34,456 bases of DNA from positions 1 through 34,456 of the forward strand of contig MGFR01000002.1 of assembly GCA_001791995.1 (NCBI GenBank), read 5' to 3'. How positions within the stretch are numbered: position 1 is the first letter of the stretch; each line of letters opens with the position of its first letter. Below, in pieces: positions 3,334 to 32,304 of this stretch. Origin of the DNA: Candidatus Woesebacteria bacterium RBG_13_46_13 (GTDB lineage Bacteria; Patescibacteriota; Microgenomatia; UBA8517). The translations under genes and the position numbers were made by a program. The notes under the pieces were generated by a model. The model was not told where the DNA came from. It saw only the letters and a program-made list of their open reading frames with translations, and searched no databases.

Positions 3334-3334
3334 C

Positions 3335-4383: not shown

Positions 4384-4393
4384 GCTTCGTTTG

Positions 4394-4465
4394 TCGGGGT
4401 GCTGGGAATTGAACCCAGTGCCTCTCGGACCCGAACCGAGCGGTCTACCGATGACCTACACCCCG
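4394..4465 (-). tRNA. tRNA-Pro (anticodon CGG), CCA not encoded
   Basis: Cloverleaf: acceptor CGGGGTG/CACCCCG, D arm GGTC/GACC, anticodon arm CTCGG-TTCGGGT-CCGAG, T arm CTGGG-TTCAATT-CCCAG. Confidence 0.95.
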
Positions 4466-4468
4466 GGA

Positions 4469-4543
4469 TGGTGCCCCTAGCCGGAATTGAACCGACATCT
4501 TACCCTTAGGACGGGTCTGCTCTGTCCGTTGAGCTACAGGGGC
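4469..4543 (-). tRNA. tRNA-Arg (anticodon CCT), CCA encoded
   Basis: Acceptor GCCCCTG/TAGGGGC, D arm GCTC/GAGC, anticodon arm (G)ACCC-GTCCTAA-GGGT(A), T arm GTCGG-TTCAATT-CCGGC, ends ACCA. Confidence 0.92.
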
Positions 4544-8112: not shown

Positions 8113-8331
8113 ATGGACGAGAAGCCTAAAAAGAAAGTCAGACTCGAAGATTTGCCGGATTTACTCACCGTGCGTGAAGTTTCCGATCTGCTACGTGTTT
8201 CTCCTTTGACTATCAAGCGCTGGGGCAAAAGAGGCAAGCTCCCCGCCATCAGGATTAACTCCCGCGGCGACCGCAGATATAAAAAAGAAGCCGTCCTCTG
8301 GCTTCTAGGCATGCAGGAAAAGACCGAATAG
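8113..8331 (+). CDS. Small stand-alone MerR/Xis-like (BldC-like, HTH_17) DNA-binding protein
   Basis: 72 aa: LLTVREVSDLLRVSPLTIKRWGKRGKLPAIRINSRGDRRY; no effector domain. Confidence 0.9.
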   Translation: MDEKPKKKVRLEDLPDLLTVREVSDLLRVSPLTIKRWGKRGKLPAIRINSRGDRRYKKEAVLWLLGMQEKTE

Positions 8332-8361: not shown

Positions 8362-9642
8362 ATGAGATTCGTCAGTGGCTTGATAGGATTTATCCGTAGG
8401 TACAGCGTACTTTTTGTGCTGGTATCGATTTTCTTGATTAAAACCCCACCTTTCTACCTTTTTCCACCCATAAAGAGTTCTCTTCTAACCACCCACACCC
8501 TTTCCCGTCTTTTTATTCTTTTGGCCTTTGCTGGAATTTATTGGGAGGAGATAAGAGAGAAGGCTAAGCCTTTAGGGCAGAATGCAAAACTGCTTTTATG
8601 GTTCTTTGTCGTTTATCTTATTTTTCAATCTCTTTCTCTCGTCGGAGCCTCAAATGTCATCGGCTTCCTGCAAAGATATAAAGATGTTGTGTTTCCGGGC
8701 CTTCTTTTGTTTGTGGTTGTGGCCAGGAGGATAAAAAGAGAAAAAGTAGTTCTAATATTCCTTCTGGCGGCCAGTGTGAATTTTGTTTACCAGATGATAA
8801 TGTTTTTCTTACCCCACATCTTTAGAAGCTGGGGGAACGAATTGGTTTACTCCGGTCATTTAGAATTGGTTCTTATCAATCTCGAAAGAGGCCGGATGTT
8901 TATAGAAACGTACGATGAGATAGCAATACCGTTTATATTTTTTCTCCTTGCCAAGCATAACGGTAGGTGGGCACGGATAGGCTTGATTGCCATCTTTTTG
9001 ATGGTCGCGCTGCCCAGCTTTCTTTCCAACTTCCGCTCGCGTGCGGGAATACTTATCATTGCATTTTTAGCCTCTTTTCTCTTTTTGACGGGCCGGAAAA
9101 TTAAAGAGAAGATTGTCCTTGTGTGTCTTTTCCTGTTCTTGGCCATGACCGCGGTTATCGTTTCGAATACATTCTTCGGCTTTTCGGTGGTGGACAGATT
9201 TGCTCTTAGGGATACCCGGGAAGATGTGGAAACTCTTCTGTATCGGGCCGAAAACATCGGAACCTCTGTTGATATGGGAATTTCCCAGCCGCTAACGGGG
9301 ATAGGTTTGGGCAACTATTTTGATAACCTGGCTACGAGTAAAAAAATGAGCAAATCCCTTTTTAACTGGGTTCAGAGAGAGGCCGAGATTGCATCAACTA
9401 ATCCCCACGACATTTTTTTGCAAACCCTTTCGGAGACTGGAGTATTAAGCTTAATTTTCGTAATTATGCTTTTAGGGTACTTTGCTTATTCAGATATTAT
9501 TGCTCTAAAGTCTAAGGATTATTTGACCAAGGCTCTTATTATTGCCTTTTGGACACTTTTCTCGTATTCACTTTTTAATCCCACAACCACCCTGGGTTAT
9601 AACTCACTATTTTGGCTTTTACGGGGACTAATTATTTTATGA
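8362..9642 (+). CDS. O-antigen ligase/O-oligosaccharyltransferase-like (Wzy_C) membrane protein, type A copy 1
   Basis: Multi-TM; SNFRSRAG; loop R...I...MGISQPLTGIGLGNY; NPHDIFLQTLSETG. Paralog of 21950-23257. Confidence 0.85.
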   Translation: MRFVSGLIGFIRRYSVLFVLVSIFLIKTPPFYLFPPIKSSLLTTHTLSRLFILLAFAGIYWEEIREKAKPLGQNAKLLLWFFVVYLIFQSLSLVGASNVIGFLQRYKDVVFPGLLLFVVVARRIKREKVVLIFLLAASVNFVYQMIMFFLPHIFRSWGNELVYSGHLELVLINLERGRMFIETYDEIAIPFIFFLLAKHNGRWARIGLIAIFLMVALPSFLSNFRSRAGILIIAFLASFLFLTGRKIKEKIVLVCLFLFLAMTAVIVSNTFFGFSVVDRFALRDTREDVETLLYRAENIGTSVDMGISQPLTGIGLGNYFDNLATSKKMSKSLFNWVQREAEIASTNPHDIFLQTLSETGVLSLIFVIMLLGYFAYSDIIALKSKDYLTKALIIAFWTLFSYSLFNPTTTLGYNSLFWLLRGLIIL

Positions 9643-10628: not shown

Positions 10629-11725
10629 GAATTGCCATCATTGGGGTCCGCGGTGTCCCCGTCATCTATAGCGGCTTTGAGACGCTGGCAGAGAAGCTCT
10701 CCGTGGGTCTGGTAAGAAAGGGGCACAGTTTAACCGTCTATTCGAGAAGGGGCTATGTCAACCCCGAGAGAAGCTCTTACAAAGGGGTAAAAATAATTAC
10801 TCTTCCTGCCCCCGGAGGCAAAAACTGGGAAACTTTTGTGCACAGCCTCGCTTCGACCTTGCACGCCTGTATTAAGGGGAAATATGAGCTTATTTACTTT
10901 GTCGGGGTAGGCAGCACAATTTTTAGTATTTTACCCAGGATTTTGGGCATAAAAACCGTGGTCAATGTCGACGGACTGGATTGGCGTAGGGAAAAGTGGG
11001 GGCCAGTCGGGAAGGTTTATTTGGCTTTTTCGGAAGTTCTGGCCTGCTTTCTTCCCAACAGGGTTATTACCGACTCCTTATATATAAAGAGGTATTACCG
11101 CAGAAAATACGGGAAAGAAACCGTTTATCTGCCTTACGGCTTCGAACCTTATACGGGTAAAAACAGGCAAATACTGGCCAGGCTAGGACTTTCCGCGGGA
11201 AAATATATTGTCTGGGTGGGTCGGCTGGTGCCGGATAACCATACGGATGAGCTTATTAGGGCATTTAAGAGCCTTGAGACCCCCTTGAAATGTGTTGTCG
11301 TGGGAGATGATCGGCTAAACGGTGGATATAAGCGGAAAATTAAAAATCTTGCCGGGGGTGAGGCTCGCATCATCTTTACAGGCTTTTTGGACAGGGAGAA
11401 GTATTCGGCTTTGGTTAAAAACGCTTTGTGTTATGTGGAGACCAAGCGCTCCGGAGGGACCCATCCCTCCTTGGTCGAGGCGATGGGCTTTGGGACTTTG
11501 GTTATCTCGAATAGCCATTCGGCAAACAGAGAAGTTGCGGGGGCCGGAGCGATTTATTACCAGAAGGGATCGGTCAAAAGTTTAGTCAAGGCGGTAAAGG
11601 TGGCCGTTAAAGGGCGGGGTACGGCCAAACTTCGGAAGATTAGCCTGAACATTGCCAAAAGCAGATATTCTTGGACTCCAATAATTAGGGCATACGAAGA
11701 TCTGTTCAGCAGCCTTACTGGATAG
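10625..11725 (+). CDS. Glycosyltransferase family 4 (DUF1972/Cps2T-WchF-like N-terminus)
   Basis: MRIAIIGVRGVPVIYSGFETLAE, NVDGLDWRREKW, VGRLVPDN, GGTHPSLVEAM, YSW. Confidence 0.9.
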   Translation: MRIAIIGVRGVPVIYSGFETLAEKLSVGLVRKGHSLTVYSRRGYVNPERSSYKGVKIITLPAPGGKNWETFVHSLASTLHACIKGKYELIYFVGVGSTIFSILPRILGIKTVVNVDGLDWRREKWGPVGKVYLAFSEVLACFLPNRVITDSLYIKRYYRRKYGKETVYLPYGFEPYTGKNRQILARLGLSAGKYIVWVGRLVPDNHTDELIRAFKSLETPLKCVVVGDDRLNGGYKRKIKNLAGGEARIIFTGFLDREKYSALVKNALCYVETKRSGGTHPSLVEAMGFGTLVISNSHSANREVAGAGAIYYQKGSVKSLVKAVKVAVKGRGTAKLRKISLNIAKSRYSWTPIIRAYEDLFSSLTG

Positions 11726-12527
11726 AACCGATGACGAAGTCTTGGAAGTTGAAATTGGGTGTCCAAATTTCCAGGAAGGAGCCGCTGTTTAAGAGCTTAA
11801 GTTCCCCGAAATAGAAGGCCCCGTCCCTCTTCAGTGCTTTAATTTTGGCCTTTACGCTAATATACCTGACGGAATCTAAGGTTCCCGCATTGAAATTTCC
11901 GTAATAGTCATTTTCAATGACCGAAGTCGCTTTTTGGTTCTTGGAAACTACTTCAAAAACCACATTTTCACCGTCAAAATATTTATCGCCTATCTTTATC
12001 GCGTCATACTCCCAGGGGTAGGCATACTTTTTGGTTAGATAAACCGTTTTTTCCACATATTCATCGTTGAACGGCTCTTTGGATATTTCCATAATGGTTC
12101 CCGTAATCAGAGTTTTGTTGGTCTCAATTTCGATGGGTGTTCCGACAACCAAACTCGAACGCTTGAACGAATATTTTTGGCTCTTGTCGTTGTAGCTAGC
12201 CGAAAGCTTAACTGTTAAGAATATATCGTACTTGTTATCGGGGCGGGTTTTGTCGAATGAAGGGTAATAGCGAACCGAAGCTATTTGCGCAACCGGCTGT
12301 CCCAAGAGCGAGTATTCGGTATCATCCTTGGCGATTGCCCGTAAAAAGTAGGCATCGGGCCTTGAGGTTACTGACCACCAGAGACCTTGGGAAACCTGCA
12401 TTTTAATATAGACGACCCGGTTATTTGGCTTGGCAAGTTTTAATAAAGCGAAGAGGACAATAAGAGCAGGAATCAAGACCAGAAAAACGAGCAGCAGGGG
12501 TAGGGCTTTCTTTCTTTTCGCCGACAT
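11715..12527 (-). CDS. Membrane-anchored hypothetical protein (DUF4330-like), copy 1
   Basis: Basic N-terminus plus TM; two internally similar beta-rich halves. Clear paralog of 23208-24011 (QGLWW, VRYYP, YDIFLTVKL, VGTPIE, FNFQDF). DUF label is by resemblance only. Confidence 0.65.
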   Translation of the reverse strand: MSAKRKKALPLLLVFLVLIPALIVLFALLKLAKPNNRVVYIKMQVSQGLWWSVTSRPDAYFLRAIAKDDTEYSLLGQPVAQIASVRYYPSFDKTRPDNKYDIFLTVKLSASYNDKSQKYSFKRSSLVVGTPIEIETNKTLITGTIMEISKEPFNDEYVEKTVYLTKKYAYPWEYDAIKIGDKYFDGENVVFEVVSKNQKATSVIENDYYGNFNAGTLDSVRYISVKAKIKALKRDGAFYFGELKLLNSGSFLEIWTPNFNFQDFVIGSIQ

Positions 12528-12562: not shown

Positions 12563-13639
12563 ATGAAAATCGTCAGACACTTCGCGATTATTTTTACAAC
12601 AATTATCCTTTTCTTGGGAGGGATTGGTTACAATCTTCTGCCTGTAGAAATAATAGCGGTACTCATCTCTTGTTATCTCTGCCTTCTGGCTGCAGTTGGC
12701 AACAAAAGATTTCTTTTACCTAAGGGTTTTGGAGTATTTGTCCTTTTCTTAGCTGCCCTGGTGGCTCATTCGTATTGGGAAGAAAAAATCCTCGTTACGA
12801 ATTATTTCATCATGTATTTGGCTGGGGGATTGTTTTGGATAGCCTTTTATAACCTTAGGTCTTATTTCGAGAAATATTACGGCTTAATGATTGTTTTACT
12901 GGCAATTGCCTTCGGGTTTTTATTTTTTTTGTTCGCAAAAGGAGGCGATATCGGAACCTGGAGCCTGTTCTTAACCTCCTCAACCTACAAGAACCATAAC
13001 CACATCGGAGATATCTGGGCTTTAACGCTTGCGGTAATTTTCTATACATCTCTTAATAAGGCAAAACTTTGGCATTTCCTTTTAGGATTGGTGGGAGTGT
13101 ATCTGATGGCAATTTCCCTATCCCGTTCAGCCTATGCCGCGCTTTTTGCTGGCGTTATTTTTGTAGCCTTCAGAAAGGGATGGATTAAAAAAGCCAGATA
13201 TGTTTCTTTGGCTACCCTGACAGTCTGTGCTGCGCTTTTGGTTTATGCCGGAACCCAAAAGACAACCTTGTTTGCACGACCTTACTATATTCAAGCCGTC
13301 GTTGGCTTTTTAAGGAATCCCTTAGGGGTAGGGATGGGTAATTTCAGCATTATCTCTGCGGATCCAATAAATCACCTGCTGGGTTTTAAAGATTTCGCCG
13401 GTTTTACCCACAATATCGTTCTTGAAGTTCTGGTTGGTTTGGGAATTTTCTCTCTCCCTTTCATCATCTGGTTCTTTCTCGTCTGCAGGAGCGTCTGGCA
13501 GAAATCTAAAACCAGGCTGTTCTCTTCAATGATATTCGTAGTGCTCTCGGTAAACCTGTTGCTTGACAGTACTTATAATATTCCTACAATGTTATGGCTT
13601 TGGTTTATGTCCATCGGGCTTGCCCAGGCGGAAGAATGA
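12563..13639 (+). CDS. O-antigen ligase-like (Wzy_C) membrane protein, type B copy 1
   Basis: Multi-TM; NHNHIGD, SLSRSA, RPYY...NPLGVGMGNF, THNIVLE. Paralog of 29916-30980. Confidence 0.82.
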   Translation: MKIVRHFAIIFTTIILFLGGIGYNLLPVEIIAVLISCYLCLLAAVGNKRFLLPKGFGVFVLFLAALVAHSYWEEKILVTNYFIMYLAGGLFWIAFYNLRSYFEKYYGLMIVLLAIAFGFLFFLFAKGGDIGTWSLFLTSSTYKNHNHIGDIWALTLAVIFYTSLNKAKLWHFLLGLVGVYLMAISLSRSAYAALFAGVIFVAFRKGWIKKARYVSLATLTVCAALLVYAGTQKTTLFARPYYIQAVVGFLRNPLGVGMGNFSIISADPINHLLGFKDFAGFTHNIVLEVLVGLGIFSLPFIIWFFLVCRSVWQKSKTRLFSSMIFVVLSVNLLLDSTYNIPTMLWLWFMSIGLAQAEE

Positions 13640-14427
13640 AGGTTGATAAAGAATATTTTCTGAGCCAGGCGGGGTTTAGTGTCAGGGTGGTTTTTAAACC
13701 CACCGAGTTCGGCTACGCACAGAAAGTGCTGATTTCTTCCTTTCAAAAAGCTTGGGCTGGTTTTCTTTCCCGCCGTTCAAAAAAGGTTGATTTTACGGTT
13801 GTTGTTTCTTCGGACGCGGGAGATAAAGAAATCCTGGTCAGGGGGGGCAGGCGATATTATTACCTGACCTATACGCGTGATTTTGCGCACGGCAAAATCG
13901 ACACCTACTACACGGTTAACCTCAGGGGACTGGACCTTCTTTTTAGGGAGATATTTGCCTTTCTTATTCGCAAGGACGGCTTTTTGCTGCACGCATCAAG
14001 CGTGGTGGACAGAAAAGGAGCACTCTCCGTTTTTATGGCCCGTTCGGGAGGGGGAAAGACCACAACAGCCAGTCTTTATAAGGGTGGAGGCTATTATAAA
14101 TTTGGCGACGACATTATTCTTGTCAGGAAAATGTCTGGACGTTGGAAATTTTTCAGCCCCCCTTTTATTGAGAAAAACGAGATTCCTCGTAAAAACCAAG
14201 CTTCGAGGGCAAAGTTTTATGTAGTCAAAAAGGCGCTCAAACCCAACCTTGCTCTTATAAAGGAAAAGAAAGTTCTGCTTCCTTTTTTGCTTGGACAAAT
14301 ATGGCTAAACCGTGGTACTTTAGAAAAACCGGTATTAAAGACCGCTTTATTGTTCCTGATGGAAAACAACTTCTCTGAACTTGGGGTAGTCCTTAACGGT
14401 AGAAAGATGCGAAAGATTATCAAATGA
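13636..14427 (+). CDS. HPr kinase-related P-loop kinase (putative peptide kinase)
   Basis: GFLLHASSV, Walker A ARSGGGKTT, KFGDDIILVR. Start at ATGA overlap 13636; immediately upstream of PqqD. Confidence 0.78.
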   Translation: MKVDKEYFLSQAGFSVRVVFKPTEFGYAQKVLISSFQKAWAGFLSRRSKKVDFTVVVSSDAGDKEILVRGGRRYYYLTYTRDFAHGKIDTYYTVNLRGLDLLFREIFAFLIRKDGFLLHASSVVDRKGALSVFMARSGGGKTTTASLYKGGGYYKFGDDIILVRKMSGRWKFFSPPFIEKNEIPRKNQASRAKFYVVKKALKPNLALIKEKKVLLPFLLGQIWLNRGTLEKPVLKTALLFLMENNFSELGVVLNGRKMRKIIK

Positions 14428-14681
14428 GGCTAAAAAAAGGGGTTTTGATTCAAAAATTGGGCGACACGTTCGTTGCCTACGACAACGATGCCTCCGTAAT
14501 GCATGAGCTAAACGAGGTGGCCTACATTATTCTTTCGGAGATTGAAAAAAGAAAAGGCAAAAAGGAAATCTTACTAAAAATAATGAAAGCCTTTTCCGTT
14601 TCCGAAAAAGAGGCCAAAAAAGACTTGGACGAGTTTGTTCAGGATCTTAAAAAGGTCGACTTGATTGTGGAGAAGAAATAA
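14424..14681 (+). CDS. PqqD family protein / RiPP recognition element (RRE)
   Basis: 85 aa with three-strand then three-helix layout; HELNEVAYIILSEI...EILLKI...FSVSEKEAKKDLDEFVQDL...LI matches the PqqD pattern. Confidence 0.88.
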   Translation: MRLKKGVLIQKLGDTFVAYDNDASVMHELNEVAYIILSEIEKRKGKKEILLKIMKAFSVSEKEAKKDLDEFVQDLKKVDLIVEKK

Positions 14682-15805
14682 TCCAGTGCATCTTTTGAAA
14701 AGATAACCCTTAGCCGTTTGGATAACGGAAGGGTTGAAAAAACCAGAGAAAAAATTAACTTTTTTCCCGCCTCGATGGCTTTTGTATCGGTGTCAAAAGG
14801 GGAAGTACGAGTAGCATAAAAACCTGCCAGGCGCATAAAAAGAGGGATTCGGGCTTCTTTGGGTAAACTTAGGCCCCCAAAAAACTTGTTAAACACCAAG
14901 ACAGAGGGGTAGATAATATACTCATAACCATATCTCCTTGCCCTATTTAAGACGATATCCATATCGGGTTTGTCTTGGCCAATAACGTTTGCGATAAGCT
15001 CCATCCTATGGATTCCCTGAAAATTGTGATGGAAAAGGTGCAAAAGGAGGTAAAGGAGCAGATCTTCTTTTATCAGTATGGGGAACCGGTTATTCCCGAC
15101 TTTTACCGCTTTTGCATTAGAAAATAATTCACGCCCGTAGACGGCGATTGAAGGAATTAACTCATTAAATCTTAAGGCTTTGGTAAATCCTATCGCCGGA
15201 GCAAAATGAACGTCGATTATTACGGCATAGGGTTTTACCTTCTTGACGAAGGAAATTTGGGAATATTTATTTACCGGTTTATGCAAAAGTGTGGGTTCGA
15301 TTGCCTCATAACCCAGCTGCTTAAAAATTTTTCCGATTTGGGGAAAGTCGTGTAGTCTAACAAGGATGTCGGCGTCAAAATAAAGTCTCTTGGGAATTTT
15401 CCCCGAATAGATAAGTTGAATCGGTAACCCCTTAAGCAGCACATAGTCGATATCTGATTTCTTTAGCCTTTTGTTTAAAAGCCCGAGCTCGGTTAAATAG
15501 GTGAGGGATTGGGAAAGATAAACGTGCGAAAGCGCTATCATCCGTCCATTACGTAAAACTTTCTCGACTTTTCCCAAGATTTCATTTTTGTTTAATATTC
15601 CGTCGGACTTGAGGTTGTTGTCGCCTTTGGTAATATAATTTGCTTCATCGGGAATATATATCACCCTGTGGACGATGACCTTTTCTTCTCTCCTGAAAGC
15701 AACAACGTCGTTTACTTTGTAAGATCTGCCTTTTTTGATAAACGGTTTATCGGTGGGCAAAATTAAGGGGGCCATGCTTGTGCCGAAGGATAAAGGGTGG
15801 CGCAT
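14639..15805 (-). CDS. S26 (S24/S26) serine peptidase fused to NTP_transf_5-like nucleotidyltransferase, copy 1
   Basis: N-terminus GTSMAP...DVVAF...VHRV...ITKGDNN...ILGKV (Ser/His type, no TM); C-terminus VLLKG...KRLYFDADILV...IDVHF...LLLHLFHH. Confidence 0.85.
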   Translation of the reverse strand: MRHPLSFGTSMAPLILPTDKPFIKKGRSYKVNDVVAFRREEKVIVHRVIYIPDEANYITKGDNNLKSDGILNKNEILGKVEKVLRNGRMIALSHVYLSQSLTYLTELGLLNKRLKKSDIDYVLLKGLPIQLIYSGKIPKRLYFDADILVRLHDFPQIGKIFKQLGYEAIEPTLLHKPVNKYSQISFVKKVKPYAVIIDVHFAPAIGFTKALRFNELIPSIAVYGRELFSNAKAVKVGNNRFPILIKEDLLLYLLLHLFHHNFQGIHRMELIANVIGQDKPDMDIVLNRARRYGYEYIIYPSVLVFNKFFGGLSLPKEARIPLFMRLAGFYATRTSPFDTDTKAIEAGKKLIFSLVFSTLPLSKRLRVIFSKDALDYFFSTIKSTFLRS

Positions 15806-15943
15806 CTAACAGGTACGGGCCGCGAGCATGAATTCCGAATCGATAGCGCTTCTGACTACACTTTTCCCATAGAAAGAAATTATGCTGACCTTTGAGGATT
15901 TGATCTTGGGCCTATGGTAACGCTTTAGCTTTTCGCCAGACAT
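15806..15943 (-). CDS. Putative RiPP-like precursor peptide P2 (45 aa)
   Basis: Manual translation MSGEKLKRYHRPKIKSSKVSIISFYGKSVVRSAIDSEFMLAARTC*; its TAG directly abuts the peptidase-NTase ATG. Paralogous to P1 and P3. Confidence 0.85.
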   Translation of the reverse strand: MSGEKLKRYHRPKIKSSKVSIISFYGKSVVRSAIDSEFMLAARTC

Positions 15944-15948
15944 AATTA

Positions 15949-16089
15949 TTAACCGCCTGAAACGCCTATCGCCAAAAGATATTCCGAATTCGAAGGATTT
16001 CTATAGGAACTTTCTCCGTAAAACGAAACAGGGGAAACTTTTGAGGATTTTATCCTTGGCTTGAGATAGATCCTTTTGGGCTTTGTCAT
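15949..16089 (-). CDS. Putative RiPP-like precursor peptide P1 (46 aa)
   Basis: MTKPKRIYLKPRIKSSKVSPVSFYGESSYRNPSNSEYLLAIGVSGG*; ATG overlaps the upstream stop (ATGA); 5-nt gap to P2. Confidence 0.85.
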   Translation of the reverse strand: MTKPKRIYLKPRIKSSKVSPVSFYGESSYRNPSNSEYLLAIGVSGG

Positions 16090-16709
16090 TGAGCCTTTCT
16101 TATCAATTCTAAATATAGTCTTTCCTCGGATTGAGTGTCAATAAGACTGATTATCTGCGTCAATTCGACAGTGTCGCCGATTCCGATATCTGTAAGCTTA
16201 ATTTGTTTTATTCCATCTGCTGTATTCTGTGTAACTACCACTGCGTTCACATCAGCTGGGGTAAACCTGGTTTTGATTTTTTTGTCGTCTTTGGCTATTT
16301 GGATAAAGTATGCATACTGGGTCTGTTTGGTTTGGTCCTCGGGCCCAAAATCAACTACTTCACCGAAGAGCTTCAACGATACGGATGCGTCCTTGATAAG
16401 CTCCTTCCTTTCCGACAAGGAATTAAACTGTGTTGCGTAATCAAACAATTTCTGCTCGGCGGATCTGGTTTGCGAGGGAGAAGGGGTGTTTGTGGGTATT
16501 GCGACATCTCGGGACTCCTCCTGGGTCGGAGCGGGAGACGGCCTGAGCAATTTAAAGAAGCTGCCCAGGCTTCCATTGGACACGTAATAGACGATCTCGG
16601 CCACAATTACCAGAAAGAATATTCCCAGAACAATAAATAGGATTTTTCTCAGGGGATTTCCGCCTTGGGGCGTTACTATCGCGCTTGTTCCTTGGGCAGG
16701 TCCATCCAT
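16086..16709 (-). CDS. Single-TM membrane-anchored hypothetical protein, copy 1 (directly upstream of the precursors)
   Basis: TM ILFIVLGIFFLVIVAEIVYY, Pro/Thr linker, C-terminal domain homologous to 32305-32916. Start ATG 16709 preferred over 16745. Confidence 0.75.
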   Translation of the reverse strand: MDGPAQGTSAIVTPQGGNPLRKILFIVLGIFFLVIVAEIVYYVSNGSLGSFFKLLRPSPAPTQEESRDVAIPTNTPSPSQTRSAEQKLFDYATQFNSLSERKELIKDASVSLKLFGEVVDFGPEDQTKQTQYAYFIQIAKDDKKIKTRFTPADVNAVVVTQNTADGIKQIKLTDIGIGDTVELTQIISLIDTQSEERLYLELIRKAQ

Positions 16710-16750
16710 TTTTTCAGTATAATAGACAAAGCTATTTAAATGCAATTAAA

Positions 16751-18352
16751 ATGGAAGTAGTGGAAACAGAATCTGAACGTGAGCCTGTCGAGATACTGCC
16801 TTCGAATATTGGAGAGATGAAGCCGGGGGAAGTAGTGCCTATTCTAACCCGTGCAGCTTCCAGAATAGACATCGTCAGACCCAAAAACGATTTTTGGAAC
16901 GGAATGAAGGAAAACCTAAGAGGTGCTGCAGCCTACCTCGAGGCGCAGAAATCCAAAATCGCCTCAAAGACCTTTAGGGTTGTAGCAGGAGCATCTTTGG
17001 TTGCGACAATGGTTTCTGCCTGTGCAAGATCGGTCGAAACCGCAAATATCCCTCCGGAAACTTTACCCATTGCAACCGAGGTATTCCCAACTTCTGAATT
17101 AACTCCCGTGCCGACAGAGATTCCTTCCGCCACTCCCGAGATTGTTCCCACGATCATCGCAGCGCAGTTTGAATATGATTTCGATTCCGAACGGCCGGGG
17201 TACATTCCAGCCGAGCTTGCGGAAACAGGAATAACCGGGGAGGTGGTCTTTAATGAAGCCCGAAGCGCAGGAGGGACAATCGTAACCGAAGTTGCTAAGG
17301 ATGAGGGCTTTGTCCCTCTTGCCGTAGAGGGTGGGATTCTCAGTGCAGAAGGCGGGAGCGCCACTTTTCTTCCGCATCCGGCAGAGATGCTCTACGAGAA
17401 TAGCCAGGGAGTACTCCAAAGTCTACGCTTTTCCCAAGAAGATTCGGGACAGGGATATGCTGCCTATGTTGATGAAAGTGGCATAGTAAAGCTAAGAATG
17501 CTGACCGTTCTCCCCACGCCCCCAGAGGGTGATTACATGGCAGCTGTCAGTTACGACCAGGAAGACAGGGGGGTGGTCTATGCGCTAAGAATGGGAAGCA
17601 CGGGAAGGATAACGGAAAGGACGCCAATCGTGTTTGCGGAGGATGGGCAAATACAAACCGATTTAGTAGACGGAAGATTGAGAATTTTTATCGACGGTCA
17701 AAGAATGCTAATGACAGAGGGAAACTTTGAAACGCCGGAAAGAGGGCTTATCGGTTACCCGATCGATTTAGGCAGGATTCCTGAATTGACTTCCCCGTTA
17801 AGCCCCGAGCAGACGGATAGCATGAGATTTGTCGGTAGCGATGGCAGAGCTTTAGCTTATGGAGTTTTTAATGTCGAAACCTCCGACGGTTGGGGGATTT
17901 GGGAGTTGCACGGCATCTTTAGGGGTGAGATTCCCGCGGAATTGTTCCCCGAAGAATATCAAGCAGGGGTAGACGGCTTCCTTTTTGAGATTCCGACCGA
18001 AAGATGGGACGCGCAAAGCGGCAGGTTTGTAAGAGCCGGTGAGTCGCAGTTTATAATTATTAATTCCTTAAGAGACCCCACTTCCGAGCCTGTGGAAGTA
18101 TATTTTCTGGACGGAAACGATGTTGGCCAAAACCCGCCTGCGAGGATGATTTCCCGCCCCGAAGTTACGGAAACTCTCAGGGGGGTAACCCCCGGATCAT
18201 CCGTCATTATCGGAAAACAATTTATCTACGATCCAACAATGGCGGGCTATAACGATTACGACTCGGCAACAATTCCATTATTGGAAGATGGTGTTCCTAC
18301 GGTTAATACCTATGACGGAATTACGCCCAGCACTCTTTATCTTTCCCGATAA
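16751..18352 (+). CDS. Acidic hypothetical protein, possible lipoprotein with long N-terminal extension
   Basis: Hydrophobic stretch ending in lipobox-like VVAGASLVATMVSAC about 90 aa after ATG 16751, then a Pro/Thr/Glu-rich linker. TATAAT at 16718-16723. Confidence 0.7.
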   Translation: MEVVETESEREPVEILPSNIGEMKPGEVVPILTRAASRIDIVRPKNDFWNGMKENLRGAAAYLEAQKSKIASKTFRVVAGASLVATMVSACARSVETANIPPETLPIATEVFPTSELTPVPTEIPSATPEIVPTIIAAQFEYDFDSERPGYIPAELAETGITGEVVFNEARSAGGTIVTEVAKDEGFVPLAVEGGILSAEGGSATFLPHPAEMLYENSQGVLQSLRFSQEDSGQGYAAYVDESGIVKLRMLTVLPTPPEGDYMAAVSYDQEDRGVVYALRMGSTGRITERTPIVFAEDGQIQTDLVDGRLRIFIDGQRMLMTEGNFETPERGLIGYPIDLGRIPELTSPLSPEQTDSMRFVGSDGRALAYGVFNVETSDGWGIWELHGIFRGEIPAELFPEEYQAGVDGFLFEIPTERWDAQSGRFVRAGESQFIIINSLRDPTSEPVEVYFLDGNDVGQNPPARMISRPEVTETLRGVTPGSSVIIGKQFIYDPTMAGYNDYDSATIPLLEDGVPTVNTYDGITPSTLYLSR

Positions 18353-18384
18353 ATTTGTTATCTTTTGATAAGAAGGATTTACCC

Positions 18385-18996
18385 ATGCCCAAAAAACTTC
18401 TTTTTATACTCCTTTTAGTTAGCTGTGTATTGCTGGCGGCTACGGTAGGCTATATCGTCTACAGACTGAGGCAGGGTGAGATTTCGCGGGAGAATGCCTA
18501 CAAGGGAGGCTTGATTACACAAAAGGAAAATTTGGCCTTAAGCCCCATCGAGAAGTTTTCGAATCCCCAGGGAGCTTTTTATAGAATTAAAGGGAGTTTT
18601 GCAAACGAACTAAAATTGGCTGAAGGCAGGCAAGATAATGCTCTGGCTGGCGAGTTCATTCTTAGGGGAGATACCCTGAAGCGGAAACTTCCGGTCCTTC
18701 TCGGCCTTGGAAACGGCTCTTTTTCTCTGGCAACGTATGACGGTTCATTTGATGGTCAATCTACCTGGGTGCAGGTTAAAACCCAGGACGGGACGGGACA
18801 ACTTATTGCAGGGGAAGAGGTTTTGCTAATGGTAGAATATCTTTTCCCCGGTGTTTCTCAATTGCCGGATTATTTCTTTAAAGAGCAGGACGTTTTCGAC
18901 AGTCTATCCGATGATATCGGCCTGGGGAAATTCAGCTATAATATTCCGAGTGATTTTGTTCTTTATCCGACCGCAGTCGGAATTATTAAAAAATGA
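18385..18996 (+). CDS. Single-TM membrane-anchored hypothetical protein
   Basis: AAGGA then ATG 18385; MPKKLLFILLLVSCVLLAATVGYIVY; stop overlaps the next start. Confidence 0.75.
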   Translation: MPKKLLFILLLVSCVLLAATVGYIVYRLRQGEISRENAYKGGLITQKENLALSPIEKFSNPQGAFYRIKGSFANELKLAEGRQDNALAGEFILRGDTLKRKLPVLLGLGNGSFSLATYDGSFDGQSTWVQVKTQDGTGQLIAGEEVLLMVEYLFPGVSQLPDYFFKEQDVFDSLSDDIGLGKFSYNIPSDFVLYPTAVGIIKK

Positions 18997-20600
18997 AAGC
19001 TCTAAATAAATTTGGGCATTGGCTGTTTTTACTCTTGCCCTTGTTTCTCGTTTTTTCAACAAAAGCTGTCTATGCGCAGATAGAACCTCACCCCGCTTGC
19101 CCTTCGGGACAAGCGTGTTATTTAACCAGGGTAATAAACCAACATACCTGCACTACCTGCCCCAAAGCCTGGTTGTGTACGGGAAATCCCAGCAGGGCTT
19201 GTTACAATGCTCTGCACGGAACAGGAGACAATAGTCTATGTTTAGGTCAAGGGCCGTGTAGGTATATGTGTATACCCGGGCGCGAAAACGAAGGAGGCTG
19301 CGTCGCATTCTCGGCAACCGTTCCCTGCAATACGGCAGGAGTATGCAGAACCACTATTAAATTTACAAGCTGTACATACGACACGGGTAGCGGAGCCTGC
19401 GCCGTAAACCCAGTAGAATACATGGGCTGTTGCGGGCCGGGAAGCGGAACCCCGACAGGAACTGCACCACCTACTCCTACGCCATCCTGTACGGTTGATT
19501 TGCTACCCGCAACTGCTCCCACGTCGGTAGGCAGCGCGGTTACCTTAACGGCATCAGTCACGATAGGGAGCGGGACGGTAGATAGTGTGAATTTTGTCTC
19601 GACCGATACGGGAATAGCAACGGTAAATCCGGCTTCCGATAGTACGGCAGTTTATTCCACGCAGGCAACGGGGGTTGCAAACGGTACAACTACGGTTACC
19701 GCTAATGTGATAATGGGAGGGGCATCAAGGTGTTCCGATACTGCCTCGGTTGAAGTGTTGGCAGCCGGTCCCTGGTGGCAGGTTAGGGATGCGGACGTAA
19801 CCAGCGGGGGGGATGTTGTTTCACCGATTCCGGCAACCTGTAGCTTGCCCGTTTGTGATCCGGTATTAAACCTGCAGGGTACCGGAGGCTTTCCTGGTAT
19901 TGCCTTATATTCCGGTCTAACCGCCGATTTCCAGGCGGGGAGCGGTACGGGGACGGTGGCGGAGGCTCCTTACGGCTGGCTGGTAAATAGCAGCTATTCC
20001 AGCTCCAAGATTTACGATCTTTCCTATTTTCTGCGCCAGATTCCACCCGATGTGACCTTTACCGAAATTGACAGCCCAACCTACAACGGGGGAGATTTTA
20101 ACTCCGGAGGAAGCCCGGCCAGGGGCTATGTCTGGTATCACTATAACGGCGCAACCTTGGGAGACATGACGATTTCAGGAAATGTCAACTTAACCGGCTC
20201 GAGGAAAGTAGTGCTTCTTGTTGAAGGAGCGGATCTTTATATAACCGGCAGGATTAATATCCAATCTTACGGCAGCGGCTATTTTATGGTTGTTGTGGGC
20301 AAAGACGCAAACGGCCTGAAGGGAAATATCATCGTTGACCCGTCGGTTTCTCACCCCACACAGCCTTCGATAGAAGGAGTGTATTTGGCGGAGGGGGAGT
20401 TTAGGACCGGTGCGGGGACCAACCAGCTTCGGGTCAGGGGAGCGGTTGCCGCATATGACGGAATTGTTTTAGAGAGAGATTTGGAAGCGGAGAATGCTGA
20501 TACCCCGGCAGAATATTTCGAATACGCACCAGATATTATCGCCACTTTTCCCCAGGTCTTCACCTCAAGAAGAATGAGGTGGAAAGAAGTAGCCCCATAG
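18993..20600 (+). CDS. Secreted protein: Cys-rich N-domain, Pro/Thr linker, Ig-like (Big_2-like) domain, C-terminal beta-rich domain
   Basis: Signal peptide ending AVYA; Cys-rich first ~150 aa; PTGTAPPTPTP; SVTIGSGTVDSVNFVSTDTGIATV...ATGVANGTTTVTA; PWWQVRDADV C-terminal domain. Confidence 0.8.
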   Translation: MKALNKFGHWLFLLLPLFLVFSTKAVYAQIEPHPACPSGQACYLTRVINQHTCTTCPKAWLCTGNPSRACYNALHGTGDNSLCLGQGPCRYMCIPGRENEGGCVAFSATVPCNTAGVCRTTIKFTSCTYDTGSGACAVNPVEYMGCCGPGSGTPTGTAPPTPTPSCTVDLLPATAPTSVGSAVTLTASVTIGSGTVDSVNFVSTDTGIATVNPASDSTAVYSTQATGVANGTTTVTANVIMGGASRCSDTASVEVLAAGPWWQVRDADVTSGGDVVSPIPATCSLPVCDPVLNLQGTGGFPGIALYSGLTADFQAGSGTGTVAEAPYGWLVNSSYSSSKIYDLSYFLRQIPPDVTFTEIDSPTYNGGDFNSGGSPARGYVWYHYNGATLGDMTISGNVNLTGSRKVVLLVEGADLYITGRINIQSYGSGYFMVVVGKDANGLKGNIIVDPSVSHPTQPSIEGVYLAEGEFRTGAGTNQLRVRGAVAAYDGIVLERDLEAENADTPAEYFEYAPDIIATFPQVFTSRRMRWKEVAP

Positions 20601-21949: not shown

Positions 21950-23257
21950 GTGCTGAAATTAATCAAACAAAATTCCGTCTTGGCGCTTACGCTGTTGGCT
22001 ATTTTTTTGGTTAAAATTCCCCCTTTTTATTTTCTCGGAATCACTAGTACCTTATTAACTAGTCATACGCTGGCCCGCTATCTAATCTTTGCTATTTTCC
22101 TTTTTAGTGCTTGGCAGGTTTTCTTCGGGAAGGGAAAAGCTATCCCGCAGAGCGGGAAAAATCTTATTCTTCTCTTTTTGGCCTATTTTTTCTTCCAGTC
22201 GTTTTCGGTTGTCGGGGCCGAGAGTGTCGAGGCCTTTGCCAGGGTCTATAAAGACATCGTTTTTCCCGGGTTTTTCCTTTTCGTGGTTTTATTCCAAAGC
22301 GGAATTGCCAGGGGTTTGGCCAAGATTTTTGTTGCCGCAGGTATCATCAACTTCTTTTACCAGATGGCGATACTTCTTGTGCCTTCCGCCTTCAGGCTTT
22401 TCGGGGAGCGCTTTATCTATAGCGAACATTTCCAGCTGGTGGATATCAATATCCAAAGAGGCCGGCTTTTTGTCGAAACCTATGACGAGATTGCTATCCC
22501 GGTTTTACTTTTTCTTCTGTTCAAAGAAAAAAGAAGCAAAGTCCGGCTAGGTTACATTTTGGTCCTGACGATGATTATCGTACCCAGCTTACTTTCCAAT
22601 TTCAGAACCAGGTTCTTGATGCTTTTCTTTGCCTTGGCTGCCTCTTTCTTGATAGTTGTTGGGGGGAGGCTTAAGGCCAAGCTGACCCTTATCGGTTCTC
22701 TTTTTGTCCTGGGATTTGTCGCGCACTCCGTTTCGGTTTACTTTTTTGGGTTTTCATTCCTAAACAGACTGGCGCTTGAGGACCCCGGGGAGGATGTCCA
22801 GACCATCCAGTCCAGATTCGCCAACATTAAAGCCTCTCTCGATATGGGACTGGCCCGTCCTTTAAGCGGGGTGGGGCTGAATAATTACTATTTTCATCTG
22901 TCCGAAGGCAGAAAGGGCCTTTTTTCGATTTCCCTTAATCTGGCCAGGCAGCGTGAGGCGGAATTTGCTTCGGTGAATCCCCACAATATCTTTGCCCAGA
23001 TTGTCTCCGAGACCGGATTGGTAAGCCTTGGCCTTTACCTTTTTATCCTGGGGTTTTTTGCCAAAGGCGATATCGGTATCGTCAAAGGCAAGGACGGACT
23101 GAAAAAATCTCTGGCAATTTCTTTCTGGACTCTATTTATATACTCGATTTTTAACCCCACCACCACACTGGCCTATAATTCTCTTTTCTGGATTTTGCGG
23201 GCCGCCCTTACTCAAGACTTACCACTTCGAAGTCCCGGAAATCGAAGTTTGGGGTAG
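21950..23257 (+). CDS. O-antigen ligase/O-oligosaccharyltransferase-like membrane protein, type A copy 2
   Basis: IPPFYF...HTLAR, VETYDEIAIP, SNFRTR, PLSGVGLNNY, NPHNIFAQ..SETG, NPTTTLAYNSLFW; all shared with 8362-9642. Confidence 0.85.
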   Translation: MLKLIKQNSVLALTLLAIFLVKIPPFYFLGITSTLLTSHTLARYLIFAIFLFSAWQVFFGKGKAIPQSGKNLILLFLAYFFFQSFSVVGAESVEAFARVYKDIVFPGFFLFVVLFQSGIARGLAKIFVAAGIINFFYQMAILLVPSAFRLFGERFIYSEHFQLVDINIQRGRLFVETYDEIAIPVLLFLLFKEKRSKVRLGYILVLTMIIVPSLLSNFRTRFLMLFFALAASFLIVVGGRLKAKLTLIGSLFVLGFVAHSVSVYFFGFSFLNRLALEDPGEDVQTIQSRFANIKASLDMGLARPLSGVGLNNYYFHLSEGRKGLFSISLNLARQREAEFASVNPHNIFAQIVSETGLVSLGLYLFILGFFAKGDIGIVKGKDGLKKSLAISFWTLFIYSIFNPTTTLAYNSLFWILRAALTQDLPLRSPGNRSLG

Positions 23258-24011
23258 ACACCGAAAAGGTCGCTCCCGGCCTGACCGCCTTTTCTTCTCC
23301 GAAAAAATAAAATCCGTCTGCGTATTTAAGCTTTATACTCGCCAGAACGGAAATTTCCAGGGTTGAGCCGGTAGGCAGGACCAAATATCTATCTTCACCC
23401 AGAGTTTTTGAGATATTGGAATAACCCAAAACGTTTTTGGAGATGACCTTAAAAACAACCTCTTTTCCGTCCGAAAATTCATCGCCGATATTTATGGCGT
23501 TATACTCCCAGCGGTAAGCCGGAATTTTTCTCAAGAGCACTTTCTTGTCGACATATTTTTCTTCGAAGGGATTCTCGTTCATATCGATGACAGTTCCGGT
23601 AACCAAAGAACGGTTCAGTTCCAGCTCGATGGGTGAGCCGACGGAGAGGGGGGAGTTTTTGAAAGAATATTTTCCGCCCTTTCCGGATGAGGCCAGTTTT
23701 AGAGTCAGATAGATATTGTATTTATCTTCAATGTCGGGATAATATCTGACATCCGTAACTTGAGCAATGGTTCTGCCCAGAAGATCGTGTTCGGAATCAC
23801 CCCTGCTTATCGCTTTGGCGAACCAAAAGGCGGGTTTTTGGGTGGAGGCCCACCATAGTCCCTGGGCGACCTTGACCTTGGCATAAACGAAATTTTCTTT
23901 GGGGGTCAGAATTTTGAGAACGATAAAGGTGGCGGTGATAACCAGAATTCCGAGAAACAAAGTAATGGCAAAAAGGGAAAATCTTTGCTTTTTGTTTTTG
24001 GGTAAGTTCAC
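23208..24011 (-). CDS. Membrane-anchored hypothetical protein (DUF4330-like), copy 2
   Basis: Paralog of 11715-12527; GTG start. Confidence 0.65.
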   Translation of the reverse strand: MNLPKNKKQRFSLFAITLFLGILVITATFIVLKILTPKENFVYAKVKVAQGLWWASTQKPAFWFAKAISRGDSEHDLLGRTIAQVTDVRYYPDIEDKYNIYLTLKLASSGKGGKYSFKNSPLSVGSPIELELNRSLVTGTVIDMNENPFEEKYVDKKVLLRKIPAYRWEYNAINIGDEFSDGKEVVFKVISKNVLGYSNISKTLGEDRYLVLPTGSTLEISVLASIKLKYADGFYFFGEEKAVRPGATFSVSTPNFDFRDFEVVSLE

Positions 24012-29915: not shown

Positions 29916-30980
29916 ATGAAAAAGTTGTTACCGGTGTTTATTTTGGGGGTATTGCTCATACTTGGCAGCTTGGGAAAAAATTCCGTCTCGTTTTTGCTTG
30001 CCCAACTTTCATTAATTTCCGTTTTGTTTTTTTGGACTCTTTTTACAAGAGAAGCGAAATCTCCTCCGGGATTTATCCTTTATCTAATTTTTCTCGGAAT
30101 TGTTGTTTGGAAATTCATTTCCGGCTCCCGAGACGGCGGTGCGGATTATCTGTATCTTTTTGCAGGTGGGGGACTATTATGGTTTTCCGCATTTAATCAG
30201 AAAGAAAAGTGGGGAGGTTATTTGGAAAAATTGATTCTTGTTTTCGGTCTGGCTATGGCCGCCCTCTATGTTCTCTGGCTAATCTTTTCTCCCGGCCTTA
30301 TCCTGCCGCAGAGCCTTTTTACTTTCTCCTCCGCCTTTAAAAACCATAACCACATAGGAGACTTGTGGGCGATTGTGCTGTTGGTTGTCGCTCGTAAGCT
30401 TGTAGCCAAAGGCGGCCTCTATTATTGGTTGCTTGCCGTTCTGGGACTTATCCTGATGTACCTTTCCTTTTCCCGCTCGGCGGTAGTTGCTTTCCTTGCG
30501 GGAGCAATTTATCTGTTCGGAAACATCGATTATCTCAAGAGGAATAAATACATTTTCACCTTTTTGTCTTTGGGGATAACGGCGGTTTTTCTTCTAACCA
30601 GTATCAACAAATCGATATTTTTCTCAAGACCTTATTTTACTCAGGCCATTTCCGGACTAAGCAAATATCCTTCCGGGGTGGGAATGGGCAACTTCAAACT
30701 CGTCTCCTCGCGTTTTGATGTGGGAACTTTTTCCAGCATTGTCCACAATCTGGTCTTGGAGGTAATGGTGGGGTTGGGCTGGATTGGCGTAGTATTTGTT
30801 GTTTGGCTGGGGAATGTTCTTTGGCAGGGAGTGGTTGGGGCAAAGAATAGAATAGCCTACGCCGTATTTTTAGGGCTTACTGTTAATTTCCTTTTCGATT
30901 CGACCTATCTTATTCCCTCGATGGTCTGGCTTTGGTTTTTGAGTCTGGGTTTAAGCCGTGGGCAGCATAATCTTCGCTGA
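29916..30980 (+). CDS. O-antigen ligase-like membrane protein, type B copy 2
   Basis: KNHNHIGDLW, SFSRSA, SRPYF, GVGMGNF, VHNLVLE, DSTYLIPSMVWLWF; all shared with 12563-13639. Confidence 0.82.
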   Translation: MKKLLPVFILGVLLILGSLGKNSVSFLLAQLSLISVLFFWTLFTREAKSPPGFILYLIFLGIVVWKFISGSRDGGADYLYLFAGGGLLWFSAFNQKEKWGGYLEKLILVFGLAMAALYVLWLIFSPGLILPQSLFTFSSAFKNHNHIGDLWAIVLLVVARKLVAKGGLYYWLLAVLGLILMYLSFSRSAVVAFLAGAIYLFGNIDYLKRNKYIFTFLSLGITAVFLLTSINKSIFFSRPYFTQAISGLSKYPSGVGMGNFKLVSSRFDVGTFSSIVHNLVLEVMVGLGWIGVVFVVWLGNVLWQGVVGAKNRIAYAVFLGLTVNFLFDSTYLIPSMVWLWFLSLGLSRGQHNLR

Positions 30981-32303: not shown

Positions 32304-32304
32304 T

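Follow-up and report, generated by a model that had tools for sequence, protein, structure and literature searches.

In a 34,456-nucleotide (nt) stretch of Candidatus Woesebacteria bacterium RBG_13_46_13 (assembly GCA_001791995.1, contig MGFR01000002.1, positions 1 to 34,456; hereafter the window), a compact gene cassette encodes a P-loop kinase, a discrete PqqD-family recognition element (RRE) for peptides that are made by ribosomes and modified after translation (RiPPs), an S26 signal peptidase fused to a PF14907 nucleotidyltransferase (NTase), a bitopic membrane protein, here called T, and two short peptides, P1 and P2. A second module (B) further along the window adds another fusion, a third peptide (P3) and another T-type protein to those of the first (A). 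The cassette probably encodes the form that the linear polyphosphorylated peptide (LPP) pathway takes in Microgenomates (Patescibacteria); this RiPP route would combine RRE-guided serine phosphorylation, leader removal by the S26 domain and NTase-dependent elaboration of the phosphate. We read it in this way because the LPP core set minus the exporter, the polysaccharide setting and the homology of the peptidase with LppS all match the window.

The LPP class was defined by Popov et al. (Nat Commun 2026; PMC13381572) in a paper of May 2026 that set out from a signal peptidase of archaeal type in Bacilli. The core set consists of the signal peptidase I (SpI) LppS, the discrete RRE LppB, the HprK-like kinase LppK, the NTP transferase LppN and the MsbA-like exporter LppD, and the arrangement lppA-K-B-S-D-N is known from Paenibacillus alginolyticus and other Bacillota. 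The clusters sit in capsular polysaccharide loci, hold one to three precursors and are cyclase-free. Their precursors carry YxxPxVLxHQxIxFETxxS, and LppK adds up to four phosphates on core Ser3. LppS cuts after T-1 and requires LppB to do so; F-3, E-2, T-1 and L-10 of LppA matter for cleavage, and LppS S29A/H68A/D93A are inactive. The final product and its role are not established in the paper, which describes LPPs as restricted to Bacillota. An earlier note on this DNA, made from the sequence alone, had proposed a candidate new system; with a cyclase-free linear class already in print, the variant alone is new.

Gene content, domain identities, conserved catalytic residues, and the conservation and synteny of the peptides are established for the Microgenomates cassette. 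Like an LPP cluster, it holds an archaeal-type S26 peptidase with a Ser/His/Asp triad, a discrete PqqD-like RRE co-localised with that peptidase, an HprK-like kinase, as judged by motifs and fold, and a PF14907 NTP transferase, present in both fusions. A macrolactam synthetase is absent from LPP clusters and from the window as scanned. Further likenesses are the YxxPx[V/I/L] leader, the hydrophobic residue three positions before the predicted cut with Ser shortly after it, the hypervariable cores, the presence of one to three precursors per cluster, and the polysaccharide-locus setting.

The homology of the fusion's peptidase with LppS is equally established. The two are 32% identical over 92 residues (E 4e-11), and S10, H46 and D68 align with the catalytic S29, H68 and D93. 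The N-terminal ~90 residues of the fusion are an archaeal/ER-type (S26B, SipW-type) signal peptidase I according to TIGR02228, and a profile of the fusion family matches human SEC11A/C (E 5e-7). Throughout an alignment of 14 homologues, the Ser of S-M-x-P and the G-D-N-N box are conserved, and H46 and D68 do not vary at all; S10 is found wherever the gene call extends that far. The calls on two matching contigs (L138, GCA_001792165.1 MGGA01000023.1; L139, GCA_035256625.1 DATEXV010000004.1) start the fusion at a downstream Met, giving a protein of 378 amino acids (aa) from which the catalytic Ser region is cut off. With the catalytic Ser already at residue 10, a transmembrane (TM) helix could not fit in front of it, and the domain has no N-terminal membrane anchor. 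We predict that this domain is the leader peptidase. It shares its catalytic domain and triad with the SipW/SEC11 signal peptidases, which prefer small residues at -1, but differs from them in having no membrane anchor, in being joined to a cytoplasmic NTase, and in a putative substrate leader that is basic and hydrophilic rather than a signal peptide.

In the NTase domain, D144xD146 and D198 are invariant across the same alignment. The confident AlphaFold2 (AF2) model (pLDDT 88.3, pTM 0.88) placed this domain nearest, by Foldseek, to LnuA, ANT(2'')-Ia and JHP933, the first two being small-molecule O-nucleotidylyltransferases. ANT(2'') structures are also the structural templates of PsmN, the NTase of pseudomycoidin, in which D134/D136 are catalytic. 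PsmN is needed for the hexose on the phosphate of pseudomycoidin, and in Escherichia coli it gave hexose addition, not a nucleotide adduct.

Three kinase motifs are invariant in 18 homologues, H119, G138-G-G-K141-T-T (T143) and D158-D159, a His, P-loop and Asp-Asp pattern which we take to be that of HPr kinase/phosphorylase (HPrK/P). In the pseudomycoidin system, PsmK D158A/D159A is inactive. With the AF2 model of the kinase (pLDDT 87.4), Foldseek recovered ATP-dependent phosphoenolpyruvate carboxykinase (PEPCK) at 2e-9 and HPrK/P at 8e-5 (1knx) to 2.5e-4, and also matched 3tqf and 2qmh. A database protein identical to the kinase (P0121) carries the precomputed Pfam assignment PF27840 (ScmC). 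The kinase assignment thus rests on motifs, fold and precomputed PF27840, and is weak by the family models run directly. For the RRE, the best NCBIfam matches were lasso B1-type chaperones, NF033530 (1e-6) and NF033536, all below their cutoffs. Sequence searches of the PDB were marginal for both proteins (PEPCK for the kinase, TbiB1 for the RRE) and did not recover LppB (9x8z).

A search of homologous loci for the small open reading frames (ORFs) had been set beforehand as a check, and the ORFs were present. When a hidden Markov model (HMM) of P1-P3 was iterated over the six-frame ORFs of 137 related loci, it recovered 75 distinct P1-P3-like peptides, nearly always placed right behind a T gene and often right ahead of the fusion gene. 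In a motif-anchored alignment of 74 of them, the Tyr of the leader YxxP motif is kept in 73 and the Pro in all; Y+5 and Y+10 are I/L/V and Y+15 is F/L. A three-sequence profile of P1-P3, run against 1.84 billion representative proteins, found 21 proteins with lengths of 42-50 aa. One of these, the top match (1.8e-22), is P3 itself (P0140); the other 20 differ from it, and the best of them reach about 1e-12. Because such profile matches and a fixed gene position do not fit chance ORFs, P1-P3 are, on the strength of their sequence conservation, genuine peptides. In the gene calls for L138 and L139, no gene is placed in the P1/P2 interval; for some relatives, a call does exist elsewhere. Together, the 75 peptides from the loci and the 20 from the protein library make up a set of about 95 short precursors with two core types.

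The leader/core splits are predicted from an alignment with LppA. P1 would be divided into leader residues 1-25 (...IYLKPRIKSSKVSPVSFYG) and the core ESSYRNPSNSEYLLAIGVSGG, with the cut between FYG and ESS; P2 into leader residues 1-26 (...YHRPKIKSSKVSIISFYG) and the core KSVVRSAIDSEFMLAARTC, between FYG and KSV; and P3 into leader residues 1-25 (...VYSKPVLRSSKIKTVQFYS) and the core RNSLRNSADTESLLLAGVVS, between FYS and RNS. The stretch ...YLKPRIKSSKVSPVSFYG ESS of P1 parallels ...YARPMVLSQQPVRFET AQS of LppA with a two-residue insertion, so that PVSFYG before ESS has its counterpart in PVRFET before AQS. An hhalign comparison of the 75-peptide profile with two LppA sequences matched Y with Y, P with P, F with F at -3 and S with S at +3, across a 2-residue gap.

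The best candidate for the phospho-acceptor, by analogy with LppA, is the Ser at core position 2-3, that is S27/S28 in P1, S28 in P2 and S28 in P3. A Ser lies within the first three predicted core residues of 41 of 73 peptides, against ~31% for other core 3-mers, and Ser/Thr is found there in 19 of the 20 members of the window-like KSS subfamily, although these counts come from related sequences and are not independent. An alternative acceptor may lie at the other end of the peptide. A second conserved motif, (S/D)SE-x-LLA, is followed in the window-like subfamily by 3-5 residues ending in Ser/Cys/Thr (17/20 locus peptides, 15/21 library peptides). This terminal residue, as a second candidate, recalls the C-terminal Ser that is phosphorylated in paeninodin and pseudomycoidin. 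Cleavage after LLA, with products of 3-6 residues, is likewise a second candidate cut, and a less likely one, demoted because of the LppA alignment.

From these features we infer RRE binding, the phosphorylation and cleavage sites, the chemistry of the NTase and the course towards the final product. P1, P2 and P3 would be translated as precursors of ~45 aa, and the RRE would bind their basic leader through the Y-x-K/R-P-x-I/L motif. The kinase would then phosphorylate a core Ser, possibly repeatedly. The cytoplasmic S26B domain would remove the leader after F-Y-G/S (F at -3, a small residue at -1), releasing cores of ~20 aa. Finally, the fused PF14907 domain would elaborate the phosphate, by analogy with PsmN into a phosphate-linked hexose, probably with substrates from the surrounding glycan locus. 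The natural peptidase-NTase fusion argues that leader removal and the NTase step act on the same RRE-bound substrate. The idea that a lasso tailoring toolkit works here on a linear peptide, with an S26 domain as leader peptidase, was already in the earlier note; it gains support from the LPP analogy and from the aligned LppS triad, and its chemistry and cut site stay predictions.

Several observations weigh against an LPP-type pathway. The hhalign match between the peptide family and LppA is not significant alone (E 0.026, probability 1.9%), and Ser stands at Y+20 in just 30% of the family members. The (S/D)SE-x-LLA motif and the C-terminal Ser/Cys/Thr are without LPP counterpart and could mark a different site of cleavage or modification. 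The kinase matched curated models only marginally (PEPCK and TIGR04352 at E ~0.05, the latter at 0.057), and among solved structures its fold comes closest to PEPCKs rather than to HPrK/P. The RRE of the window is very divergent and gave no BLASTP alignment with LppB (WP_029196375.1). An MsbA-like exporter is absent from the scanned window ORFs and, by a crude motif test, from 138 sequences. LppN itself showed no activity in the experiments of PMC13381572.

The genes of module A occupy the interval 12563-16709 (Table 1) as two convergent operons, whose 3' ends overlap tail-to-tail by 43 nt (14639-14681); the corresponding overlap of fusion and RRE genes in the related locus L001 measures 58 nt (8134-8191). 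Such overlapping ends may allow antisense or transcriptional coupling. Each gene listed in the earlier note was recovered, and the ORF coordinates bear out its description of two convergent units, kinase-PqqD on the plus strand and T-P1-P2-fusion on the minus strand, with junctions of 0-5 nt or overlaps. The kinase ATG (13636), whose choice agrees with homologues that begin MK..DKEYF, overlaps the stop of the Wzy_C-like gene by 4 nt, and the PqqD gene overlaps the kinase gene by 4 nt. On the other strand, the ATG of P1 overlaps the TGA of T and is preceded by a Shine-Dalgarno-like GAAAGG; P1 and P2 are 5 nt apart, and the ATG of the fusion directly follows the stop of P2. The Wzy_C-like gene at the head of the plus-strand operon is probably an accessory partner in the cassette.

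Table 1. Coordinates of the genes and domains of modules A and B in the window
Feature	Position	Strand	Basis
Wzy_C-like (O-antigen ligase/polymerase-type) membrane protein	12563..13639	+	PF04932, E 1.5e-8; heads the Wzy_C-kinase-RRE operon
P-loop kinase, HPrK/PEPCK fold, LppK/PsmK-like, 263 aa	13636..14427	+	motifs, fold, PF27840
Discrete PqqD-family RRE, 85 aa	14424..14681	+	PF05402, E 3.7e-11
S26::PF14907 fusion, 388 aa	14639..15805	-	TIGR02228 and PF14907
S26B peptidase domain of the fusion, residues 1-91	15533..15805	-	TIGR02228, E 1.1e-11
PF14907 nucleotidyltransferase domain of the fusion, residues 92-388 (LppN/PsmN-like)	14639..15532	-	PF14907, E 7.4e-24
Precursor peptide P2, 45 aa	15806..15943	-	ORF and conserved family
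Precursor peptide P1, 46 aa	15949..16089	-	ORF and conserved family
Bitopic membrane protein T, 207 aa from ATG 16709	16086..16709	-	ORF; no Pfam/NCBIfam match
Second Wzy_C-like gene, module B	29916..30980	+	PF04932, E 7.5e-4, below family cutoff; convergent with second fusion
Second S26::PF14907 fusion, 419 aa	30910..32169	-	PF14907, E 1.9e-16; TIGR02228, E 1.7e-10
Precursor peptide P3, 45 aa	32166..32303	-	identical protein P0140 in the representative library
Second T-type bitopic membrane protein, 203 aa	32305..32916	-	directly upstream of P3; recovered with first T by jackhmmer

The boundaries 13636-16709 drawn in the earlier note are too narrow. They leave out the second peptide/fusion/T module at 29916-32916 and probably also the co-operonic Wzy_C-like gene. 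In module B, the fusion is 33% identical to the first and retains the catalytic residues, and the Wzy_C-like gene is a paralogue of the one in module A (jackhmmer). Neither a kinase nor an RRE gene belongs to the module, which may plausibly use those of module A in trans. Loci with several T-peptide-kinase triads for one fusion and RRE pair (L010, 5948-9845; L017, 7840-11351; L029, 745-6034) suggest that T and kinase track the individual peptide, and RRE and fusion are shared. Such sharing therefore makes it plausible that module B borrows the kinase and RRE of module A.

T had no Pfam or NCBIfam match, and a word-indexed homologue search retrieved T alone. Its relationship to the neighbouring DUF4330-like protein extends to the TM helix at most (hhalign probability 8.7%). 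A Glu-x-x-Tyr is retained by T homologues within the single TM helix or right behind it (VAEIVYY, AAEAVYLY, ISEVGYL, IIEFGFL), and the rest of the sequence diverges fast. It may matter that an acidic residue is buried here and that the peptide leader beside it is very basic.

The remaining window is mostly devoted to envelope glycans, with glycosyltransferases of families 1, 2 and 4, WecG/TagA, a Bac_transf fusion, a carbamoyltransferase and PMT_2. Outside this group lie genes for an M16 peptidase, MreB and a nucleoside diphosphate kinase (NDK), two tRNA genes, and several ORFs that matched no family. Four Wzy_C paralogues lie within the 34 kb, two of them outside the cassette modules (8362-9642 and 21950-23257), as do two DUF4330-like TM proteins (11715-12527 and 23208-24011). 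The Bac_transf (phosphoglycosyl transferase) domain at 24048-26147 makes up the first ~190 of 699 residues, and the C-terminal ~500 aa have no assignment. Immediately divergent from the T-P1-P2-fusion operon are three consecutive plus-strand ORFs of 555, 213 and 535 aa (16685-20600) without Pfam/NCBIfam match, the last with a Cys-rich N-terminal region and Thr/Pro-rich linkers; from their sequence, the products may be surface proteins. Further away, at 3323-4543, are the NDK (3323-3883), which is extended at its N terminus by ~95 residues, and a 2H/CPDase-like phosphoesterase (3880-4383), adjoined by tRNA-Pro(CGG) and tRNA-Arg(CCU).

Homologues of the fusion form more than 120 clusters, and almost all of these are full-length. 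The carrier genomes that are named belong to Gottesman-, Roizman-, Levy- and Beckwithbacteria and to other Microgenomates/Patescibacteria, with one contig labelled Omnitrophota; many third-party annotation records of metagenome-assembled genomes among the carriers are titled 'uncultured Gammaproteobacteria', which we took as a placeholder. Gene order is conserved among about 120 distinct related loci: T lies directly upstream of the peptide gene(s) in 58, the peptide gene is followed by the fusion in 33, the kinase gene by the PqqD gene in 40, and PqqD and fusion genes converge in 56. A neighbourhood analysis of homologues, another check proposed beforehand, also bore the cassette out. Within 6 kb of 34 non-redundant fusion genes, none near contig ends, we found an RRE in a fraction of 0.82, a kinase in 0.79, a DUF4330-like protein in 0.71, a T protein in 0.68, Wzy_C in 0.62, a peptide in 0.56 (limited by the HMM) and Bac_transf in 0.44. 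Radical SAM genes were rare (0.09), as were asparagine-synthetase-like ones (0.03, a single SGGxDS-type protein in 1/34), and no ABC-like gene was found. ABC and asparagine-synthetase-like proteins were detected by simple motifs (Walker A plus LSGGQ, and SGGxDS), and by this crude test no protein with Walker A and LSGGQ occurs among the 138 sequences.

Several traits set these cassettes apart from the LPP clusters of Bacillota. Peptidase and NTase are one polypeptide, and the fusion lacks the N-terminal alpha1 helix with which LppS contacts LppB (catalytic Ser at residue 10 versus 29). The leader is strongly basic, with a Y-to-F spacing two residues longer, and the cores of ~20 aa have the conserved SE-x-LLA and C-terminal Ser/Cys/Thr, or are Cys-rich in relatives. 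Each peptide is accompanied by a membrane protein, T, for which no counterpart is described in the parts of the LPP paper considered; kinase and RRE genes are co-operonic with Bac_transf or Wzy_C; and the window has a second module without kinase and RRE. As far as the literature found here shows, in which a single paper mentions LPPs, what is new is the phylum, the architecture of the fusion, T as a partner, the types of core and the link to glycan genes at operon level. The dataset of PMC13381572 does hold a few unanalysed singletons from the Candidate Phyla Radiation (CPR), namely PIS09522.1, a stand-alone SpI with RRE, and OGV92686.1 (Supplementary Data 1), a Microgenomates ABC-ATPase::S26 fusion with an adjacent RRE. 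Partial searches of that supplement found no S26::NTase fusion.

The glycan genes around the cassette invite another explanation, namely that the system serves cell-envelope glycan assembly. The phosphopeptide would be nucleotidylated (NDP-like) or glycosylated on its phosphate and then joined to a polyprenyl-phosphate-linked or surface glycan, with Bac_transf/Wzy_C-like enzymes doing the joining and T acting as a peptide-specific membrane partner. The early steps would be common with the LPP pathway. We regard this as unlikely, yet it is the alternative with the most to recommend it. A Bac_transf gene stands immediately upstream, on the same strand, of the RRE gene in 13 loci and of the kinase gene in 11 (24 in total), and a Wzy_C gene stands in that position before the kinase gene in 9, as in the window. 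DUF4330-like, Wzy_C and Bac_transf genes are close to the fusion gene in 71%, 62% and 44% of loci, respectively, and the Bac_transf gene encodes a polyprenyl glycosylphosphotransferase (TIGR03025, 4e-60). That the motif test detected no exporter in the CPR loci points in the same direction, as does the resemblance of the NTase fold to O-nucleotidylyltransferases. In Bacillota, moreover, LPP clusters sit in capsular loci, and LppN is inactive without those, and an outside partner is suspected (PMC13381572). However, the synteny could be the inherited neighbourhood of one superphylum, and the chemistry is without precedent for peptides at any step. The hexose, rather than nucleotide, added by PsmN in E. 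coli also speaks against it. Moreover, the fusion is unanchored N-terminal to its catalytic Ser, and an extracytoplasmic ligation would require a flippase.

A bolder form of this idea is that the Microgenomates LPP-type pathway hangs short ribosomal peptides on the envelope, where a phosphodiester would tie them to a surface glycan or a lipid-linked one, and does not make a diffusible product. We hold this to be doubtful. If true, envelope attachment would explain why the final LPP product and LppN activity eluded detection in Bacillota.

The SynChlorMet system (ScmC/ScmD/ScmE/ScmF; TIGR04248-04251) raises the question whether the cassette is an incomplete or split radical-SAM RiPP, SynChlorMet-like or ranthipeptide-like, with its maturase encoded elsewhere in the genome. 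Pfam places the kinase in ScmC, where it is likewise paired with a PqqD-like protein, and a few related Microgenomates loci add PapB-like radical SAM/SPASM enzymes and Cys-rich precursors. One of them is L005 (4943-13987), a hybrid cassette in which the fusion is flanked by two PapB-like radical SAM/SPASM maturases and a B12-binding radical SAM protein. Its other genes encode an ScmC-like kinase (TIGR04249, 2.6e-7), a PqqD protein, T and a peptide rich in Cys, and it is neighboured by a prepilin peptidase and by genes of type IV pilin-like (N_methyl) proteins. Cys-rich tails of 20-40 aa after the motif occur in 28 of 73 family peptides, in other branches than that of the window. Such relatives, sharing the leader, were seen in L003, L005, L010, L014, L017, L021, L024, L027, L029, L031, L052, L053 and others (e.g. 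...LLAACNCGGGTTSCCSGTYCFGSLCSE). Yet radical SAM genes lie near just 9% of fusion genes, and of 12 loci with Cys-rich peptides, 11 lack one nearby; the window itself encodes no radical SAM protein, and its cores have zero or one Cys. Furthermore, the window proteins fall short of the curated models for ScmC, ScmD and ScmE: the window kinase gave no TIGR04249 match, and the RRE reached 17.2 bits on TIGR04248, where the cutoff is 100. To our knowledge, neither an S26/NTase fusion nor a T protein is part of the SynChlorMet definition. A split radical-SAM pathway is thus very improbable. For the Cys-rich relatives, we also considered lanthipeptide-like phosphorylation and elimination onto Cys; no lyase or cyclase candidate was found, and such a route does not apply to the Cys-poor peptides of the window.

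A lasso peptide cluster that has its cyclase and B2 protease genes at another site, with kinase, NTase and RRE as paeninodin-type tailoring enzymes, is hardly to be expected either. The cassette does share with paeninodin and pseudomycoidin an HPrK-like kinase with the Asp pair, a PF14907 NTase with DxD and ANT(2'') among its closest Foldseek matches, a PqqD-type RRE for a [Y/W]xxP leader and peptides that mostly end in Ser/Cys/Thr. The kinase/NTase pair is typical of paeninodin-like clusters, and the best curated matches of the RRE are lasso B1 chaperones. In contrast to those clusters, the window has no macrolactam synthetase, B2 cysteine protease or ABC exporter, and its presumed leader peptidase is a serine enzyme of family S26, which, fused to the NTase, already fills that place. 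The earlier note had described the window as free of a lasso cyclase, B2, radical SAM, YcaO and ABC exporter genes, and Pfam scans of all substantial window ORFs agree, finding no asparagine-synthetase-like cyclase, transglutaminase-like B2 protein, radical SAM protein, YcaO or ABC transporter in the 34 kb. An SGGxDS-type protein lies near only one of the 34 fusion genes. On inspection, the predicted cores lack an N-terminal small residue combined with Asp/Glu at position 7-9. In Bacillota, only about a third of SpI genes have a link to lasso genes, and the maturation of LPPs proceeds without such genes (PMC13381572).

The last alternative, that P1-P3 are regulatory or spurious ORFs and the enzymes act on another protein such as T, which co-varies with the system, or a secreted neighbour, could appeal to the empty P1/P2 interval in the collection gene calls, but is scarcely credible given 75 distinct sequences conserved at the protein level in a fixed position, a YxxP motif known as an RRE ligand, library E-values down to 1e-12 for relatives distinct from the window peptides, and translational coupling in a tight operon.

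Other known systems were considered as well. The link to HPr-rel-A made in the earlier note did not hold. That system is composed of an HPrK-like kinase, a PqqD-like chaperone and a PF14907 NTase, and the window proteins reached 12.5 bits on TIGR04352 against a cutoff of 200 and 20.4 bits on TIGR04353 (PqqD_rel_X) against 35. Because both curated models stay far below cutoff, the cassette is not a member; Pfam files the kinase under PF27840 (ScmC). As for anti-phage defence, PADLOC gave no meaningful match for the six module proteins (kinase, RRE, both fusions and both T proteins). The RRE-Finder publications do not mention kinases, NTases or signal peptidases, and we found no usable literature on PF14907 or on SynChlorMet/ScmC.

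An LPP-type pathway in Microgenomates would extend this RiPP class from Bacillota to the CPR. As the fusion alone has more than 120 clusters in the CPR, the LPP class would be older or more mobile than reported. The peptidase-NTase fusion offers a handle on the function of LppN/PsmN-type enzymes, and the curated precursors, of which the window's own P1 and P2 are uncalled in the gene calls for L138 and L139, are now available as a set. Finally, the link to polysaccharide genes is now seen in two very distant phyla, and in the CPR it reaches the level of the operon, with Bac_transf or Wzy_C joined to kinase and RRE genes. A coupling between phosphopeptides and envelope glycans thereby becomes directly testable.

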